64,000 nt of DNA from Acidobacteriota bacterium. Its GTDB lineage: Bacteria > Acidobacteriota > Vicinamibacteria > Vicinamibacterales > CAVVIG01. The translations under genes were made by a program, and so were the position numbers. Below, piece after piece: positions 32,034 through 50,787 of this stretch; positions within the stretch are counted from its first letter, which is position 1; every line of letters starts with the position of its first letter. The stretch spans positions 10,623 to 74,622 of the forward strand of contig JADZED010000041.1 in assembly GCA_020850715.1 (NCBI GenBank), read 5' to 3'. Under the pieces are notes generated by a model, which ran no database searches, had not been told where the DNA came from, and worked only from the letters and a program-made list of their open reading frames with translations.

Positions 32034-32705
32034 CTAGCCCACGGCCAGCGGGTCGACGAGCCCGGCTTCACGGAATCCCCGGGCGCGCAACGCGCAGCTG
32101 TCGCAGCGGCCGCACGGCCGCCCGGCCGCCCCGGGATCGTAGCAACTGTGCGTGAGGCCGTAGTCGAGCCCCAGCGCGGCGCCGCGCCCGATGATCTCCG
32201 CCTTCGTCATGGCGATGAGCGGGGTGTGAAGGCGAACGGCTGCGCCTTCGACGCCGGCCCGTGTCGCCAGCGCGGCCAGCGACTCGAACGCCGCGATGTA
32301 TTCGGGCCGGCAGTCCGGGTACCCCGAGTAATCGAGCGCGTTGACGCCGATGGCGATGTCGCGCGCGCCGAGCGTCTCGGCCCAGGCGAGCGCGAGCGAC
32401 AGGAAGATCGTGTTGCGCGCCGGCACGTAGGTGGAGGGGATGTCCGGCGCGCCGAGATCGCGGCCGTGCGGCACCTCGCCGCCCGAGGTGAGCGACGAGC
32501 CGCCGATGGCGCGGAGATCGAGGGCCAGCTCGAGGTGCCGCTCGACGCCGAGCGCCCGCGCGACGACGCGGGCCGCCTCGATCTCCCGTGCGTGGCGCTG
32601 GCCGTAGGCGATCGTCAGCGCACAGAGGTCGAAGCCTTCCGCCTTGACCAGCGCCGCGGCGGTGTAGGAATCGAGGCCGCCGCTCAGCAGGATGACCGCA
32701 CGCAT
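32034..32705 (-). CDS. queC: 7-cyano-7-deazaguanine synthase
   Basis: 223 aa. [15 protein letters not shown] (PP-loop). The C-terminal zinc Cys cluster is CYDP...[10 protein letters not shown]. Confidence 0.9.
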
Positions 32706-32744
32706 GTCAGACGGGCTGCCGGCGCCGACCTGGGCGGGCGCGCC

Positions 32745-33386
32745 TCATACGCCTCTCGTGGCAGGCGGCCAGATGTACTTGTGGATCTGGAGCTGCAGCC
32801 GGACCGGCAGCCGATCGGCAAGGACCCATGCCGACAGCGGCTCCGGATCGAGGATGCCGTGTGCCGGCGACAGCAGGATCGCGCCCGTGCGGCCGGCAAG
32901 ATCGAGCCGGCCGATCGTGTCGCGCGCGAACTCGTAATCCCGTCGGTCCGCGATCACGAACTTCACCTCGTCCCTGGGCGTCAGGTGCCCGATGTTCGAC
33001 CAGTCGTTCCGGTGCGCTTCGCCGCTGCCCGGGCACTTGATGTCGACGATCCTGATCACGTCGGGCGGCACGCGTCCGATCGGACGGTGGCCGCCGGTCT
33101 CGAGCAGCACCGTGCGGCCGCGGTCTGCCAGCGCCCGCATCAGCTCGTACACGTCCTCCTGCAGCAGCGGCTCGCCGCCGGTGATCTCGACCAGGGGACA
33201 CTCGTAGGCCTCCACGGCGGCCACGACGTCGGCGACCGACTGCTTGCGCCCCCCGGTGAACGCGTAGGGCGTGTCGCACCAGGCGCAGCGCAGATCGCAG
33301 GAGGTCAGCCGCACGAACACGCAGGGGCGGCCGGCGTGCGTCGATTCGCCCTGAATCGAATGGAAGATCTCGTTGACGGTGAGCAT
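32745..33386 (-). CDS. queE: 7-carboxy-7-deazaguanine synthase (radical SAM)
   Basis: 213 aa. Motifs: IFHSIQGEST..GRPCVFVRLTSCDLRCAWCDT. Confidence 0.9.
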   Translation of the reverse strand: MLTVNEIFHSIQGESTHAGRPCVFVRLTSCDLRCAWCDTPYAFTGGRKQSVADVVAAVEAYECPLVEITGGEPLLQEDVYELMRALADRGRTVLLETGGHRPIGRVPPDVIRIVDIKCPGSGEAHRNDWSNIGHLTPRDEVKFVIADRRDYEFARDTIGRLDLAGRTGAILLSPAHGILDPEPLSAWVLADRLPVRLQLQIHKYIWPPATRGV

Positions 33387-34475: not shown

Positions 34476-35174
34476 TGCTCCTGCGCGGCGCGATCTGTCG
34501 ACGACCCCCGCCTGCGCGCACAGCGGCCGGATCGCGCACGCCGCGCAGCGCGGGTAGACCGGCCTGCACACGTTCTGGCCCCACGTGACGAGATACAGGT
34601 TGATGTAGGGCCACCAGCGCGGGGAGGTTGCCTCGTAGAGCGCCTGCTCGGTCTCATCGGGCGTCCCGGTCGCCACCCACCCGAGACGGTTGGCAATCCG
34701 GTGCACGTGCGTGTCGACGCAGATGTTGCGGCGGCTCCCGAACGACAGGATGAGGACGAGATTCGCCGTCTTCCGGCCGACGCCCGGCAGCGTGAGCAGC
34801 TCCGCCATCGTGCCCGGCACGCGGCCGCCGAACCGCGCCGCCAGCAGCGCGCATGTCCGCTTCAGGTGCCGCGCCTTGTGCCGGTAGAAGCTCACCGGGT
34901 AGATGAGCCGCTCGATCCGCTTCGTTGCGAGCGACGCCATCTCGGGCGGCGTCCGTGCGGCGCGGAACAGCCGCGAGGAAGCCGCCGCCGTCACCGGGTC
35001 GCGCGTCTGCGCCGACAGCATCGTCGAGACCAGCACCTCGAAGGCATTCCTGCGGCTGCCGCCGGCAATCTTCTCGACGGCGGGCAGTTCGAGGCCGGCG
35101 ATCTCGCGGGCAATCACCTTCATCACCCGCGCGACACGGCGGGCGCGCGCGGCTGGAACGGCGCGACGCGTCAT
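34431..35174 (-). CDS. nth: Endonuclease III
   Basis: Inside track ORF 34431..35792; the ATG at 35174 forms an ATGA overlap with the upstream dehydrogenase. HhH motif: LLTLPGVGRKTANLVL. Other motifs: VDTHVHRI, and the Fe-S cluster CRPVYPRCAACAIRPLC (C-x6-C-x2-C-x5-C). Confidence 0.9.
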   Translation of the reverse strand: MTRRAVPAARARRVARVMKVIAREIAGLELPAVEKIAGGSRRNAFEVLVSTMLSAQTRDPVTAAASSRLFRAARTPPEMASLATKRIERLIYPVSFYRHKARHLKRTCALLAARFGGRVPGTMAELLTLPGVGRKTANLVLILSFGSRRNICVDTHVHRIANRLGWVATGTPDETEQALYEATSPRWWPYINLYLVTWGQNVCRPVYPRCAACAIRPLCAQAGVVDRSRRAGASPAAPARRRRPGRV

Positions 35175-36118
35175 GAGACCGGCGTGAGCGGCGGCCGGCC
35201 GCGCAGGACGTTGATCACGTTCTCCACCGCCAGCTCGGCCATCGCCGTGCGCGTTTCCTTCGTCGCGCTGCCCAGGTGCGGCGCCAGCAGGACGTTCTCG
35301 AGCGGCAGCAGATCGGGATGCACCGCCGGCTCGCGTTCGTAGACGTCGAGCGCCGCGCCCGCGATCAGGTGCTCCTTCAACGCCCAGGCGAGGGCGGCTT
35401 CGTCGACCACCGGCCCGCGCGCCGTGTTGATCAGGCACGCGCTGCGCTTCATGCGGGCCAGCGCTCGGCGGTCGATCAGGTGGGTCGTCTCCCGCGTCAG
35501 CGGCACGTGCAGCGAGACGACGTCGGAGCTGTTGAGCAGCCGATCGAGCGACATCGGCTCGGCTCCCGATGGGTCCGCCGGACGCCTCGACGTGAACGCC
35601 ACCCGCAGGCCGAACGCCGGCGCACGCGCGGCGACCGCGCGGCCGATGCGGCCGTATCCGATCAGGCCGAGCTGCTTGCCGCGAAGGTCGGTGCCCAGCA
35701 TGAAGTCGAGCGCCCATCCCTTCCACCCGCCGCGCCTGATCAGGCGCTCGCCTTCCGACAGCCGCCGCGTGAGCGCCAGGATCAGCGCCCACGTGAAGTC
35801 GGCGACCGGTTCGGTCAGGACGTCCGGCGTGTTGGTGACGATGATGCCCCGGCCGCGCGCGTACTCGACATCGACGTTGTTGAACCCGACGGCGACGTTG
35901 GCAATCACCTTCAGGCCCGGTGCGGCGTCAACGACCGCCGCGTCGATCGACTCGGTGAGCAGGCACACAATCGCGTCCTTGCCGGCAATGCGGCGTTTCA
36001 GCTCGGCCGGCCCGATCGGCGCTTCGCCGTCGTACACGTCGACGTCTCCGATCGCACACAGCTTCGCCAGCACCGAGGAGGGCAGCTTGCGCGTGACGAG
36101 AATGCTGGGCATCGCCAA
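35171..36118 (-). CDS. D-isomer-specific 2-hydroxyacid dehydrogenase (glyoxylate/hydroxypyruvate reductase-like)
   Basis: 315 aa. NAD-binding motif: GLIGYGRIGRAVA. Other motifs: NTARGPVVDEAAL, DVYEREP, PHLGSAT. Confidence 0.85.
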   Translation of the reverse strand: MAMPSILVTRKLPSSVLAKLCAIGDVDVYDGEAPIGPAELKRRIAGKDAIVCLLTESIDAAVVDAAPGLKVIANVAVGFNNVDVEYARGRGIIVTNTPDVLTEPVADFTWALILALTRRLSEGERLIRRGGWKGWALDFMLGTDLRGKQLGLIGYGRIGRAVAARAPAFGLRVAFTSRRPADPSGAEPMSLDRLLNSSDVVSLHVPLTRETTHLIDRRALARMKRSACLINTARGPVVDEAALAWALKEHLIAGAALDVYEREPAVHPDLLPLENVLLAPHLGSATKETRTAMAELAVENVINVLRGRPPLTPVS

Positions 36119-36202
36119 CTGCGGCAGGCGTGCGTGAGGGGGGAAGGCGGCCTTCGCGATCCTTCCTGCCGCTCCCGCCCTGCCCGCCCCTCCCTGCCCC
36201 TC

Positions 36203-36451
36203 TCAATGTCCGAACGACTGGCAGAACCCGCAGTGGGTGCACCGAGCGGCCGGCTCGATCAGACAGACGCCGCCATCCTCTCCGCCGCGGTGGACGGGCA
36301 ACCTCAGATGGCTGGCGTGCTCGCGGCAGCCGGCCGCGTCGAGCGGGGCGCCGGGTTCCGCCGGCGGGTCGCCGCCCCGGCCCGAGCCTGCGGCGTACCT
36401 CGCCACCGCCTCCCGCACGAGCGCGCGCAGTTCCTGCTCAGAGAGCTCCAT
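36203..36451 (-). CDS. 82-aa protein with an N-terminal encapsulation-peptide-like amphipathic helix and a C-terminal Cys/His cluster (candidate BMC cargo or redox cofactor protein)
   Basis: Track ORF 36203..36490; the start is moved to the ATG at 36451 (a 14-nt overlap with the upstream BMC-P). The sequence runs MELSEQELRALVREAVARY, then a Gly/Pro linker, then CREHASHLRLPVH...VCLIEPAARCTHCGFCQSFGH. Confidence 0.5.
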   Translation of the reverse strand: MELSEQELRALVREAVARYAAGSGRGGDPPAEPGAPLDAAGCREHASHLRLPVHRGGEDGGVCLIEPAARCTHCGFCQSFGH

Positions 36452-36716
36452 CGACGTCAACCCGGTCGACGATGCCCACGACGGCGGCATCGACCGGCGC
36501 GGCCTTGCGCCCCAATGCCTCGCCCGCGGCCCGTCCCTCGAGCACGATCAGCACGCGTTCGTGGACGCCTGCGCCCACGCCGTCGACCGCGAGCAGCGCC
36601 GTGCCGCGCGGGTTGCCATCGGGATCGATCGGCTGCACCAGCAGCAGCTTCGCGCCCTCGAACCTGGCGTGCTTCTGAGTGGCGACGACGGTGCCGACGA
36701 CCCGTCCAATCTGCAT
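36438..36716 (-). CDS. BMC-P pentameric vertex protein (EutN/CcmL/PduN family), copy 3
   Basis: 92 aa. MQIGRVVGTVVATQKHARFEGAKLLLVQPID...DAAVVGIVD. Confidence 0.85.
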   Translation of the reverse strand: MQIGRVVGTVVATQKHARFEGAKLLLVQPIDPDGNPRGTALLAVDGVGAGVHERVLIVLEGRAAGEALGRKAAPVDAAVVGIVDRVDVDGAL

Positions 36717-36719
36717 CCG

Positions 36720-37025
36720 CTATTCAGCCGCTCCGGCGCGAACCGCGGCGTCCGCCGGCGGCTCGACGCTCCAGTGATCGACAATGCCGACGATGCCGGC
36801 ATCCACCGGCGGCTCGGCGGGCAGAAACGGGAAGCTGGCTTCCTTCCCGCGCACGAAGAAGACGTGCTCGCCGGCGCCGGCCCCGACCTCGTCGACGGCG
36901 ACGATCGGCCGGCCCGCGGGCTGCCCGTCGGGCGCGATCGGCTGGACGATCAGCAGCTTCACGCCGAGGAGCGTCTCGTCCTTGCGGGTGGCGACGACCT
37001 CTCCGACGACTCTCGCGAGCTGCAT
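36720..37025 (-). CDS. BMC-P pentameric vertex protein (EutN/CcmL/PduN family), copy 2
   Basis: Track ORF 36720..37052; start at the ATG at 37025. MQLARVVGEVVATRKDETLLGVKLLIVQPI...DAGIVGIVD. Confidence 0.85.
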   Translation of the reverse strand: MQLARVVGEVVATRKDETLLGVKLLIVQPIAPDGQPAGRPIVAVDEVGAGAGEHVFFVRGKEASFPFLPAEPPVDAGIVGIVDHWSVEPPADAAVRAGAAE

Positions 37026-37035
37026 CGCCGCCCGG

Positions 37036-37308
37036 CTACTCGCGAACCGCAATCTCGTCGACGATGCCGACCACGGCGGCGTCGACGGGGCAATCTTTGA
37101 GGCCCGATGCCATGCGCGCGGAACTGCCGCTCACGATCAGGACGGTCTCGCCGACGCCCGCATCGACCGTGTCGACCGCAATCACACAGCCGCCTTCGGC
37201 GGCCTTGCCCCGGGGATCCATGGGGCGCGCGATGAGCAGCTTGGTGCTGACGAGCCGCGGATCCTTGCGGGTCGCGACGACGGTGCCGATGATCCGGGCC
37301 AGCAGCAT
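37036..37308 (-). CDS. BMC-P pentameric vertex protein (EutN/CcmL/PduN family), copy 1
   Basis: Inside track ORF 37036..37431; start at the ATG at 37308. [30 protein letters not shown]...DAAVVGIVD. Confidence 0.85.
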
Positions 37309-37312
37309 CCGG

Positions 37313-37603
37313 CTATGCCTTGACGGTCGCCTTGCCGATCGGCAGCGCGTCCTCCAGATTGGCGTGCGGACGCGGAATGACGTGCACCGACACGAGCTCC
37401 CCGACGCGGCGCGCCGCGGCGGCGCCTGCATCGGTGGCGGCCTTCACCGCCGCGACATCGCCGCGGACGATCGCCGTGACATAGCCTGCGCCGATCTTCT
37501 CCCAGCCGACGAGCGTGACCTTCGCGGCCTTGACCATCGCGTCGGCGGCCTCGATCATCGCGACCAGGCCCTTTGTTTCGATCATGCCGAGTGCCTCACC
37601 CAT
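37313..37603 (-). CDS. BMC-H hexameric shell protein (PduA/EutM-like, Pfam00936-type)
   Basis: Track ORF 37313..37618 begins at a TTG; the ATG at 37603 has AAGGAG 7 nt upstream. [56 protein letters not shown]. Confidence 0.9.
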
Positions 37604-37625
37604 TGCGGTCTCCTTCAAGCGGCCT

Positions 37626-38531
37626 CTATCGCAGGCTCCGTATCGCGTCTTCGATCAGCGCGGAGAGCTCGCGGTATGTTAACCGAATTTCGCCGCCCGC
37701 CCCGGCCGGAGCCGGCGGCGCCGCGCCGTGTGTGAGCTCCAGCACGAGGCGGCGCCCGCCGCCTTCCGGCGCCTGCACGACCTGACAGGCCACCTCGCCG
37801 GTTCCGCCCGGCGCCGCGGAGCCGATCGCCGGGGGTCGGCGTCCGGGTCCGAGCGCGTCCGCCGCGTCGGCGCAGATCGGCGCGGGGGCGGCGATGCCGT
37901 ACGCGCCGCGCAGCGCCTGGAGCCGGCCGACCTCCTCGCGCGAGAGCACGTGCTCGCGTCCGAGCAGCCGCGCGACGAGGCTGATCCGGGCGAAGTGCTC
38001 GATCGTCTCCATCTTGTAGTACGCCCCGAACAGATCGGCGCCGACGGTGAGGGCGCCGTGGTTGGCGAGGAGCATGCCGTCGTGCGCCTTGATGTACTTC
38101 CGGACCGCCTCGGGCAGCTCCTCGGTCGACGGCGTGGCGTACTCGGCGATCGGAATGCTGCCCAGCGTCGTCAGGACCTCGGCGAGCACGGCGCGGTCCA
38201 GCGGAATGCCGGCGACGGCGAAGCCGGTCGCCGTCGGCGGATGCGCGTGGACGACCGCCCGCGCATCCGGGCGCTGGCGGTACACCTCGAGGTGCATCAG
38301 CATCTCCGACGACGGGTCGCGATCTCCCTCGAGCTTGCGCCCCTCGAGATCGGTGATGCACATCATGTCCGGCGTCATGAAGCCCTTGCAGACGCTCTTC
38401 GGGGTCATGAGCAGCCGGGCCTCGCCGAGACGGACGCTGATGTTGCCGTCGTTCGACGCGGTGTAGCCGCGGGCGTACATGCGGCGCCCGACTTCGACGA
38501 TGTCCGCGCGCAGGGAGGATTCGAGGCTCAT
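37626..38531 (-). CDS. Class II aldolase/adducin-family protein (fuculose-phosphate-aldolase-like) with an approximately 85-aa C-terminal extension ending in an encapsulation-peptide-like helix
   Basis: 301 aa. Motifs: [31 protein letters not shown] (metal His), [11 protein letters not shown]. The tail is a Pro/Ala/Gly-rich linker followed by [21 protein letters not shown]. Confidence 0.85.
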
Positions 38532-38779
38532 GCGGTGCGGGCGCGGTACTTGTCGCGGCAGGCAGTCGAGCAGAAGAAGACCGGCTGGCGGTCCCCGGCC
38601 AGCGTCACGGCGCGACCGGGCACCACGAAAGTGCCGCAGACCGGATCGCGGACCATCGGCACCGGCCGCGGCGGCGTGTCCCGCCCGCCGCCGAGCCCGG
38701 CCAGCACGCCGTCGACGAGGCGCCAGAACGCCCGGGCGAAGACGACGAACAGGACGAGCAGGAGGGCCAGGCGCAGCAC
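38528..38779 (-). CDS. Small membrane-anchored YHS/TRASH-like domain protein
   Basis: Inside track ORF 38528..39115; the GTG at 38779 overlaps the upstream stop. It has an N-terminal TM segment (LRLALLLVLFVVFARAFW) followed by DPVCGTFVVPGRAV...FFCSTACRDKY. The stop overlaps the aldolase ATG (ATGA). Confidence 0.5.
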   Translation of the reverse strand: MLRLALLLVLFVVFARAFWRLVDGVLAGLGGGRDTPPRPVPMVRDPVCGTFVVPGRAVTLAGDRQPVFFCSTACRDKYRARTA

Positions 38780-39423
38780 TACTGCCCCTGCGGCGGCGCC
38801 GGCGCGCTGCCTGTCGTGGGATGCGCCGAGCGAAGGCTGTCGAGTGCGCGTTTGGCGGCCTGCCCTTCCGGACCGTCCGGAGCGACGGCGAGCACCTGCT
38901 CCCACGAGCGGGTCGCGCCGTCGAGGTCCTGCTTGCCGAACGCGAGGACGATGCCCTTGTTGAGCAGCGTCTTGACGTGCTTGGGATCGACCGCCAGCGA
39001 ATGGTCGAATTGCTCGATCGCCTTGTCGGGCTGGTTGGTGTAGTAGTACGCCACGCCGAGATCGGTGCTCACGTTGGGATCGCCAGGATCGAGCTTGATC
39101 GCCGCCGAATACCACTTGATCGCGTCGTCGTAGCGCTCGGCATCGAAGTAGAGGTTGGCGAGATCGACGCGCGGCTTCGCGCTCGACGGCTCGCGCTCGG
39201 CGATCGCCTCGAGCGCCTTCACCCGCTCCTGGTCGAGAATCGCCGCGCGCGTGGTCCCCTCGCTCCCGGCCGGGGCGGCGGCGGTCTGGACCGCGGCCGG
39301 CGGGCCAGCGCCCGGCCTTGCCTGCTGGCTGCCGATAACCCAGCCGGCGATCAGGCCGAACGCGATGCCGGCGAGGCCGAAGGCGATCGCATCGGACTTC
39401 ATGGAGGTAGAGTCTTCGATCAT
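38779..39423 (-). CDS. Membrane-anchored tetratricopeptide-repeat protein
   Basis: 214 aa. TM segment: AIAFGLAGIAFGLIAGWVIG. TPR-like repeats: LANLYFDAERYDDAIKWYSAAIKLDPGDP and LGVAYYYTNQPDKAIEQFDHSLAVDP. Confidence 0.7.
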   Translation of the reverse strand: MIEDSTSMKSDAIAFGLAGIAFGLIAGWVIGSQQARPGAGPPAAVQTAAAPAGSEGTTRAAILDQERVKALEAIAEREPSSAKPRVDLANLYFDAERYDDAIKWYSAAIKLDPGDPNVSTDLGVAYYYTNQPDKAIEQFDHSLAVDPKHVKTLLNKGIVLAFGKQDLDGATRSWEQVLAVAPDGPEGQAAKRALDSLRSAHPTTGSAPAPPQGQ

Positions 39424-49635: not shown

Positions 49636-50727
49636 TTAGAGGATCAGCATGGCGTCGCCGTAGCTGTAGAACCGATACCCCTCGTCGATGGCGCGGCGAT
49701 AGGCCGAGAGCACCCGCTCGCGGCCGGCGAAGGCCGAGACCAGCATCAGCAGCGACGACCTGGGCAGGTGAAAATTCGTGATCAGGCCGCCGATCGCGCG
49801 GAAGTCGAAGCCCGGGTGGATGAACAGGTCGGTCTGCCCCGCCCCGGGTGCGATCGTCCCTTTCGCACGAGCCACCGCCTCGAGCGTCCTGGTCGTCGTG
49901 GTGCCCACGGCGACGATGCGGCGCCGATCGCGCAGCGCGGCGGCGATGGCAGACGCCGCCGGCGGCTCGATGACGTATGGCTCGGCTTCCAGCCGGTGAT
50001 CTTCGACGCGCTCGACGCGAACCGGCTGGAATGTGCCGTACCCCACGTGCAGCGTGATCTGCGCGATCTCGACGCCGCGCGCGGCCAGCGCCGCGATGAG
50101 CGGCGGCGTGAAGTGCAAGCCGGCCGTCGGCGCGGCAATCGAACCGCGCGCGCGCGCGAATACGGTCTGGTACCGCGCGCGATCGTCCCCACGGTCGTCG
50201 CGCTTGATGTAGGGCGGCAACGGCACGTGACCGATCGCGTCGACGACGGCGTCGATCGACCCGGCGCCCTCCGGCCGCAGGCGCACCACCCGCCTGCCGT
50301 GGAAACGCCGCTCGACCACCTCGCCGTGCAGCCGCAGGCCGCCCGACGCACCCTCCGGCGGCTCGAAGACGACGCGCGCTCCCGGCCCGAGCTTCTGGCC
50401 CGGGTGCATCAGCGCCTCCCACATGTCCCCGCCCGACATGTCGGAACCGTCCGCGCGGGCCGGATCCACACGCCGCAGCAGCAGGCACTCGACCGCGCCG
50501 CCGCTCGGCACGCGCCGCCCGATCAGCCGCGCGGCGAAGACACGCGTGTCGTTGACGACGAGGAGATCGCCGCTGTCGAGCAGATCCGGCAGCGCGGCAA
50601 TGGAGAGGTGCGCGAGTTCGCCGGTGCGGCGGTCGAGCCTCAGCAGCCGTGAGGCGCCGCGGTCGGGCGGGGGTTCCTGCGCTATCAGTTCGGAGGGGAG
50701 CTCGAAGTCGAAGTCGCGGACATCCAT
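49636..50727 (-). CDS. queA: S-adenosylmethionine:tRNA ribosyltransferase-isomerase
   Basis: Track ORF 49636..50784; the start is moved to the ATG at 50727 (MDVRDFDFELPSELIAQEP). Other motifs: LPPYIKR, VTLHVGYGTF, FRFYSYGDAMLI. Confidence 0.9.
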   Translation of the reverse strand: MDVRDFDFELPSELIAQEPPPDRGASRLLRLDRRTGELAHLSIAALPDLLDSGDLLVVNDTRVFAARLIGRRVPSGGAVECLLLRRVDPARADGSDMSGGDMWEALMHPGQKLGPGARVVFEPPEGASGGLRLHGEVVERRFHGRRVVRLRPEGAGSIDAVVDAIGHVPLPPYIKRDDRGDDRARYQTVFARARGSIAAPTAGLHFTPPLIAALAARGVEIAQITLHVGYGTFQPVRVERVEDHRLEAEPYVIEPPAASAIAAALRDRRRIVAVGTTTTRTLEAVARAKGTIAPGAGQTDLFIHPGFDFRAIGGLITNFHLPRSSLLMLVSAFAGRERVLSAYRRAIDEGYRFYSYGDAMLIL

Positions 50728-50787
50728 GTCCGCCTCGATCTTATCCGAGCCGAACGCGCTGCCGGCTCTCTTCGCCGGCTGCACGCA

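Follow-up and report, generated by a model that had tools for sequence, protein, structure and literature searches.

A stretch of 64,000 nucleotides from an Acidobacteriota bacterium (contig JADZED010000041.1 of assembly GCA_020850715.1, positions 10,623 to 74,622 of the forward strand), hereafter referred to as the window, carries on its minus strand an operon coding for bacterial microcompartment (BMC) shell proteins and for a class II aldolase. The aldolase gene (37626..38531, minus strand) consists of 301 codons followed by a TAG stop, and its product matches Pfam PF00596 with E = 2.5e-50. Beyond its catalytic domain, the enzyme bears a long tail terminated by an amphipathic helix. This tail is very probably a cargo-targeting extension, i.e., an encapsulation peptide (EP), of the aldolase of an ACI-type microcompartment. 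The NCBI protein MCC7417006.1, from an Acidobacteria metagenome-assembled genome (MAG), matches the window aldolase at 100%, and thousands of metagenomic homologues of ~293 aa are found at ~80% identity. The GC content of the gene at the first, second and third codon positions is 0.73/0.51/0.91. In this 70% GC window, a gene caller based on GC at third codon positions picks antisense frames, and open reading frames (ORFs) supported by Pfam were used instead; the plus-strand ORFs 35276..37735 and 37573..37785, which overlap the tail, were discarded as GC artefacts, conservation tracking the minus-strand codons.

The Aldolase_II Pfam match spans residues 10-184 of the 301-aa protein, and the catalytic domain as a whole occupies residues 1-213 (37893..38531, minus strand), ending with Y211-G-I, as delineated by alignments with PDB entries and by predicted local distance difference test (pLDDT) values above 90. 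Alignments with the free-standing solved aldolases FucA, DrdA and YgbL (207-222 aa) stop at query residues ~193-214, and Foldseek aligned only 205-208 columns of the predicted model with the same three enzymes, with target-normalised TM-scores of ~0.9. Since the fold ends at ~213 by both approaches, the extension consists of residues 214-301, i.e., 88 aa beyond the free-standing enzymes. The first-pass annotation, made from the sequence alone, had set the end of the fold near residue 215 and considered the remaining ~85 residues as an addition, and both statements hold; the interval to which it drew attention, 37626..37886, covers the aldolase ORF from residue 216 to residue 301, stop codon included. 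FucA, DrdA and YgbL/OtnC (PDB 1FUA, 6BTG, 6VOQ) resemble the window aldolase in fold and in metal- and phosphate-site residues, but are 28-32% identical to it and end where its tail begins; the solved 5-deoxyribulose-1-phosphate aldolase entries in the alignment were 6BTD/6BTG. All of 37 diverse relatives keep the metal ligands H95, H97 and H158, and nearly all of them the catalytic E76; the phosphate-binding Ser-Ser motif PSSE aligns with the PSSE of FucA. Judging from these residues, the catalytic domain is an intact metal-dependent FucA-like class II enzyme.

Alignment of the tails of 77 intact species-level orthologues (64-93% overall identity) yields one plan common to all 77, in which PAP[ILVF]C, a first spacer, a CQ island, a second spacer and the terminal helix succeed one another. 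The first conserved island (residues 214-220, AAPAPIC; 37872..37892, minus strand) includes P216, A217, P218 and C220, each invariant in 77/77. The hypervariable spacer that follows (residues 221-248; 37788..37871, minus strand) has an occupancy of 0.47, a commonest-residue frequency of 0.47 and a pLDDT below 50; its length varies from 7 to 28 aa across the 77 species, the copy of the window being the longest and rich in Pro, Ala and Gly. The second island (residues 249-263; 37743..37787, minus strand) obeys the consensus C-Q-x-x-x-[AS]-P-(3-5 residues)-R-L-[VI], here CQVVQAP…RLV. In this island C249 and Q250 are present in 77/77 orthologues, A254 in 73/77, P255 in 76/77, R261 and L262 in 75/77 each, and V or I occupies position 263 in 76/77; the island is unfolded in the AlphaFold2 monomer prediction. 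A second hypervariable spacer (residues 264-280; 37692..37742, minus strand), of 5-37 aa among the orthologues and with a commonest-residue frequency of 0.32, leads to the putative EP itself (residues 281-301; 37629..37691, minus strand), which is made up of an EIRLT lead-in and of the amphipathic helix 286-300. The consensus of this terminal segment is E-I-R-L-T-Y-[RG]-E-L-[ST]-A-L-I-x-x-A-[VI]-[RK]-x-L-[RK], and E281, R283, Y286, L289, L292 and A296 are invariant in 77/77.

The terminal amphipathic helix announced by the first-pass annotation is borne out by hydrophobic-moment analysis, the peak helical hydrophobic moment of the entire protein (0.60) being located at residues 282-299; shuffled versions of the last 18 residues match the observed moment in 2% of cases. 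AlphaFold2, run on the monomer with a 54-sequence alignment, likewise predicts a helix at residues 286-300 with a pLDDT of 85-91, against values above 90 for residues 1-210 and below 50 for residues 226-273. Residues 214-280 contain 25% Ala, 19% Gly and 15% Pro (11%, 8.5% and 4.7% in the core, respectively), so that these three residues account for 60% of this segment vs 25% of the core. The view of the linker as a low-complexity Pro/Ala/Gly stretch is thus correct for the spacers, which are hypervariable and rich in these residues in the window, but does not extend to the two invariant Cys islands, and the compositional bias is peculiar to this GC-rich sequence and is not kept in the orthologues. 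Searched alone against PDB sequences, the tail gave no match at E up to 10. In several database orthologues, mostly from long-read MAGs, the tail is frameshifted or contains an internal duplication; assembly errors seem to arise easily in the GC-rich spacer region, and automated annotations of the tail appear unreliable.

The commonest-residue frequency of the terminal 21 residues is 0.83 vs 0.84 for the catalytic core, and the two regions hardly differ in synonymous codon diversity (0.44 and 0.42, respectively). Because the terminal residues are as conserved as the core and vary ordinarily at synonymous positions, constraint acts on the protein. A tail without function, produced by GC-driven low-complexity read-through and bearing its helix by chance, would suit a 70% GC genome and hypervariable spacers of Ala, Gly and Pro, but not a helix and two islands that are invariant in 77 species despite normal synonymous variation, nor a single architecture in 77/77; this explanation, which retains practically no probability, is refuted by the conservation data.

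The setting of the aldolase gene is that of a microcompartment. Its stop codon is followed, 22 nt further, by the ATG of a gene coding for a BMC-H shell hexamer (37313..37603, minus strand; Pfam PF00936, E = 1.6e-30), ahead of which lies an AAGGAG ribosome-binding site. Three consecutive genes for BMC-P (EutN/CcmL) pentamers come next (36438..37308, minus strand, i.e., ~37036..37308, 36720..37025 and 36438..36716; PF03319, E = 3e-30 to 5e-29 each), whose products are paralogues sharing 48-53% identity. No other shell gene was found elsewhere in the window. Downstream of these, a small Cys-rich protein of 82 aa (36203..36451, minus strand) begins with an amphipathic helix (MELSEQELRALVREAVARY), continues with a variable linker and carries a C-x7-C-x2-C-x2-C…GH motif at its C-terminus; it also displays a conserved HASH motif. 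The N-terminal helix of this protein ('ELRALVREAVARY') has a motif in common with the C-terminal helix of the aldolase. Across the six-frame ORFs of 82 loci (2.47 million residues), EL.AL[VI].[DE]A[IV] is confined to the C-termini of aldolases, with 61 occurrences, and to the N-termini of small Cys-rich proteins, with 10. The occurrence of one helix motif on two proteins of the same operon, at opposite termini, fits a portable targeting tag. A profile hidden Markov model of the aldolase helix matched no other protein, being too sequence-specific.

Conservation of this arrangement was assessed by scanning one genome per GTDB species with a 9-sequence aldolase alignment as query, which returned only Vicinamibacterales loci. 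The best 80 loci code for aldolases 64-93% identical to that of the window, and their titles nearly all read Vicinamibacterales, Vicinamibacteria or Acidobacteriota, three MAG bins bearing other labels. The BMC-H gene adjoins the aldolase gene downstream in 80 of 81 loci, the lone exception being a locus truncated where its contig stops. The BMC-P triplet, a gene for a YHS-like protein and a gene for a tetratricopeptide repeat (TPR) protein are each present in 78/81. A gene for a D-2-hydroxyacid dehydrogenase similar to glyoxylate/hydroxypyruvate reductases (35171..36118 in the window, minus strand; Pfam PF02826 and PF00389), which is devoid of terminal extension and whose top NCBIfam match is glyoxylate reductase with 336 bits vs a cutoff of 455, was detected in 58/81 loci, and seems to be an accessory component, not a core one. 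Several of the loci whose flanks are long have a gene for a HhH-GPD glycosylase directly after that of the small Cys-rich protein.

An aldolase bearing an EP has been known since 2021 as one of the parts that define the ACI type of microcompartment, described as containing "a pfam00596 aldolase with a C-terminal EP" (Sutter, Melnicki, Schulz, Woyke & Kerfeld 2021, Nat Commun, PMC8217296, main text and Supplementary Data 2). In this catalogue, ACI is listed among the types 'without an obvious signature enzyme', a carbohydrate-related role is proposed for it, its distribution is restricted to Acidobacteria subdivisions 4 and 6, and its aldehyde dehydrogenase is encoded by a satellite locus (PMC8217296). 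The operon of the window does not differ in kind from this description. The two share the EP-bearing PF00596 aldolase, a single basal BMC-H, a triplet of BMC-P, a PF00389/PF02826 dehydrogenase, and a small protein of ~80 aa (here 36203..36451) that begins with an EP and has conserved cysteines towards its C-terminus; the window belongs to Acidobacteria subdivision 6 (Vicinamibacteria). No aldehyde dehydrogenase was seen in the main locus. The hydroxyacid dehydrogenase of ACI went undetected in roughly one in four of the 81 related loci, and the published description leaves out the tail islands, the TPR gene and the YHS-like gene, all three of which are present in the window.

The history of the tail can be approached through relatives of the aldolase that lack it. 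The nearest tail-less relatives, of 216-221 aa and 58-64% core identity, are encoded by hexapeptide-protein/aldolase/transaldolase/IclR loci without shell genes; their neighbours are a gene of the transaldolase/fructose-6-phosphate-aldolase family and an IclR regulator, a setting that may hint at the ancestral sugar-phosphate pathway. More diverse relatives were sampled as one representative per 50%-identity cluster, giving 104 full-length proteins, 57 of which have long tails (35 aa or more); the tail ends with an amphipathic helix in 41 of these 57. Homologous 'I.LTR.EL..LI..A' ends occur on several relatives at 50-58% identity, and another group of Acidobacteriota with a homologous aldolase helix has the locus YHS / aldolase / BMC-H / two BMC-P. 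Shell genes are near none of the four informative loci of short-tailed relatives (0/4).

Taken together, the architecture of the tail, its absence from relatives not associated with microcompartments, the adjacency of shell genes in 80 species and the helix motif shared with the small Cys-rich protein support the role of the linker and helix as a BMC cargo-targeting tail, which the first-pass annotation had proposed and with which the published annotation of ACI agrees. The tail thereby combines the features by which an EP is recognized (Kinney 2012, Aussignargues 2015), namely an amphipathic helix of ~15-20 residues at a protein terminus, a flexible and poorly conserved linker, here interrupted by two invariant islands, absence from non-BMC homologues, and linkage to shell genes, which is mixed in more distant tailed clades. 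From these features we infer that the aldolase is actually encapsulated and that its helix has a binding partner.

Other observations weigh against a targeting role. Among diverse metagenome loci coding for long-tailed aldolases, shell genes were found in the flanks of 14 of 24 informative loci and were absent from the other 10. A related clade of lower GC content (43-54%) has aldolases of ~258 aa whose tail ('GPDPF.EGCPIP…ITLTRSQLISLISEAI') retains the Cys and the helix, and five of its loci are free of shell genes over 5-10 kb. The two invariant islands inside the linker are left unexplained by the classical EP model. Neither the operon nor any of the ten largest ORFs deemed plausible in the window encodes an aldehyde dehydrogenase (PF00171), which agrees with the satellite locus of the BMC catalogue and keeps the pathway from being read here. 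Finally, we found no experimental work on ACI components in the literature searched.

The finding named by the first-pass annotation as speaking against a targeting role, i.e., tailed orthologues outside microcompartment loci, was thus encountered to some extent, since some loci have no adjacent shell genes, but a pair of closely related aldolases suggests dispersal. With 92% identity and the same tail, these two proteins are encoded in different settings, one 61 nt upstream of a BMC-H gene, whose product is 91% identical to the BMC-H of the window, and the other between ruvAB and purSQ, without a shell gene in the vicinity. The simplest account is a recent dispersal of BMC genes rather than a different function; such dispersal is documented for the ACI and HO types (PMC8217296).

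The upstream part of the operon brings in another explanation of the helix. The operon likely starts with the gene for a TPR protein (38779..39423, minus strand; Pfam TPR families) whose N-terminus bears a hydrophobic segment. The gene for the 83-aa YHS-like protein (38528..38779, minus strand) follows; this protein has one hydrophobic helix and a DPVCG…FFCS..C motif, and its orthologue from a related locus matches PF04945 (YHS) weakly. The GTG start of the YHS-like gene overlaps the stop of the TPR gene by 1 nt, and its stop overlaps the ATG of the aldolase gene by 4 nt. The YHS-like gene is in this way translationally coupled to both the TPR gene and the aldolase gene. TPR domains commonly bind terminal peptides, and the C-terminal helix of the aldolase could be a ligand of the membrane-anchored TPR protein, or could bind the membrane directly, thereby tethering the enzyme at the membrane. 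The presence of the TPR gene upstream in 78/81 loci and the gene overlaps of 1 and 4 nt are compatible with such a tether, as is the TPR-aldolase pair of the GC 43-54% clade, which is kept, with an overlap of 4 nt, in the absence of adjacent shell genes. Nevertheless, one BMC-adjacent aldolase locus has no TPR gene directly upstream, only a faint TPR match ~6 kb off on the opposite strand, and the small Cys-rich protein, too, carries the helix motif, at its N-terminus. Moreover, the composition and length of the helix match published EP statistics (PMC4594438), and the 92%-identical aldolases with and without an adjacent BMC-H gene indicate gene dispersal. We therefore regard membrane tethering as very improbable.

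If the tail is an EP, its last ~16-21 residues would form the EP helix, which would bundle with equivalent helices of other cargo, i.e., the small Cys-rich protein and the satellite-encoded aldehyde dehydrogenase known from the literature, and would dock on the lumenal face of a shell made of BMC-H and the three BMC-P. The disordered spacers would give the helix its reach from the aldolase oligomer. Bundling and docking are both proposed by analogy with the peptides of PduP, PduD, EutC and CcmN, and the mechanism of EPs is summarised in PMC11585597. Inside the compartment, a ketose-1-phosphate would likely be cleaved to dihydroxyacetone phosphate and an aldehyde, which the aldehyde dehydrogenase would then oxidise.

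The closest described counterparts of this tail belong to other BMC class II aldolases, in which a C-terminal EP helix of ~17 residues follows a linker of 23-81 aa (Aussignargues 2015, PMC4594438). These enzymes resemble the window aldolase in having a C-terminal helix, a long linker and a high linker Cys content, but are only about 40-50% identical to it. An aldehyde dehydrogenase and further core enzymes are encoded in their loci, and they act on a known substrate (fuculose/rhamnulose-1-phosphate in PVM). Whereas their linker was described without sequence conservation, that of ACI holds two invariant islands. By analogy with PVM, the term 'signature enzyme' that the first-pass annotation applied to the aldolase is plausible, but the BMC catalogue sees no obvious one in ACI. 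The N-terminal EPs of PduP, PduD and EutC rely on the same physical principle and presumably have a similar residue pattern, but are located at the opposite terminus, are borne by unrelated enzymes and were tested experimentally. The peptide of PduD ('…LLRQIIEDVLRD'), for instance, presumably resembles the aldolase helix.

The cysteines of the tail are not confined to the close orthologues. In the 57 long-tailed relatives of the diverse set (60% identity or less), 42 have a Cys within 25 residues of the fold, most often at position +7, which corresponds to C220; CxxC occurs in 20/57, and CxxCxxC in some tails. The Cys frequency in the first 25 residues of these tails is 5.8%, vs 1.4% in the core and 1.5% in the remainder of the tail, while only 9 of 47 short-tailed relatives have any tail Cys (Fisher P = 2e-8). 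A Cys content of 5.5% was given for the linkers of BMC class II aldolases and left without comment (Table 2 of PMC4594438), and neither the description of ACI nor our literature search yielded any mention of invariant tail islands or of a Cys motif in BMC aldolase tails. This enrichment, together with the CxxCxxC and YHS-like proteins encoded by the operon, makes a metal- or redox-dependent role of the tail a reasonable lead, as far as can be judged from sequence. Conceivably, though this is a tentative proposal that we consider rather doubtful, the tail is a three-part module in which the Cys islands (PAP[ILVF]C and CQ..[AS]P…RL[VI]) constitute a second functional element. The tail cysteines may bind a metal, or their disulfides may cross-link cargo or gate the active site until packaging.

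Another explanation gives the tail a mainly regulatory or assembly role centred on C220 and C249, where a metal or disulfides would link the tails of the oligomer or latch the active site, the helix serving for oligomerisation. The C-terminal tail of FucA contributes to the neighbouring active site, which lends this idea a precedent. It also accounts for the invariance of C220, C249 and Q250 (77/77), for the enrichment of tail Cys, CxxC and CxxCxxC in long-tailed relatives, and for the CxxCxxC and YHS-like proteins of the operon, and agrees with a remark in the BMC catalogue that metal binding may matter in ACI (PMC8217296). Yet AlphaFold2 predicts no structure at residues 226-273, the tail sequence matches no solved metal site, and a helix motif found at the opposite terminus of another operon protein fits a portable tag better than a latch. 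A mainly regulatory tail is in our opinion unlikely; the two roles are not mutually exclusive, and cysteines acting in this manner could coexist with targeting to the microcompartment, which remains the reading that we favor.

As to the reaction catalyzed, the substrate was said in the first-pass annotation to be unreadable from the sequence, and profile searches agree with this, the aldolase lying below every NCBIfam equivalog cutoff, including those of FucA, RhaD, MtnB, OtnC, AraD and ribulose-1-phosphate aldolase. The best NCBIfam model was OtnC (3-oxo-tetronate-4-phosphate decarboxylase), with 136 bits vs a cutoff of 250, and the FucA models gave 79-119 bits vs cutoffs of 264-400.

As stated, the finding of a targeting tail matters little, as it re-derives a catalogued feature of ACI on a protein already in GenBank. 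ACI microcompartments are nonetheless very common in soil Vicinamibacteria, and the organelle is uncharacterised. The helix of the aldolase and its twin on the small Cys-rich protein provide concrete reagents for an encapsulation test, while the Cys islands and the recurrent Cys at position +7 offer a small lead on the assembly or regulation of tailed aldolases.

Beyond the operon, the region is flanked by queuosine biosynthesis genes (QueC, a radical-SAM QueE-like protein and QueA; 32034..33386 and 49639..50787, minus strand), and the surrounding genes are housekeeping genes, coding for FtsH, TilS, phosphoglucomutase and PdxJ. The BMC operon sits in conserved core-genome synteny, not in an island.

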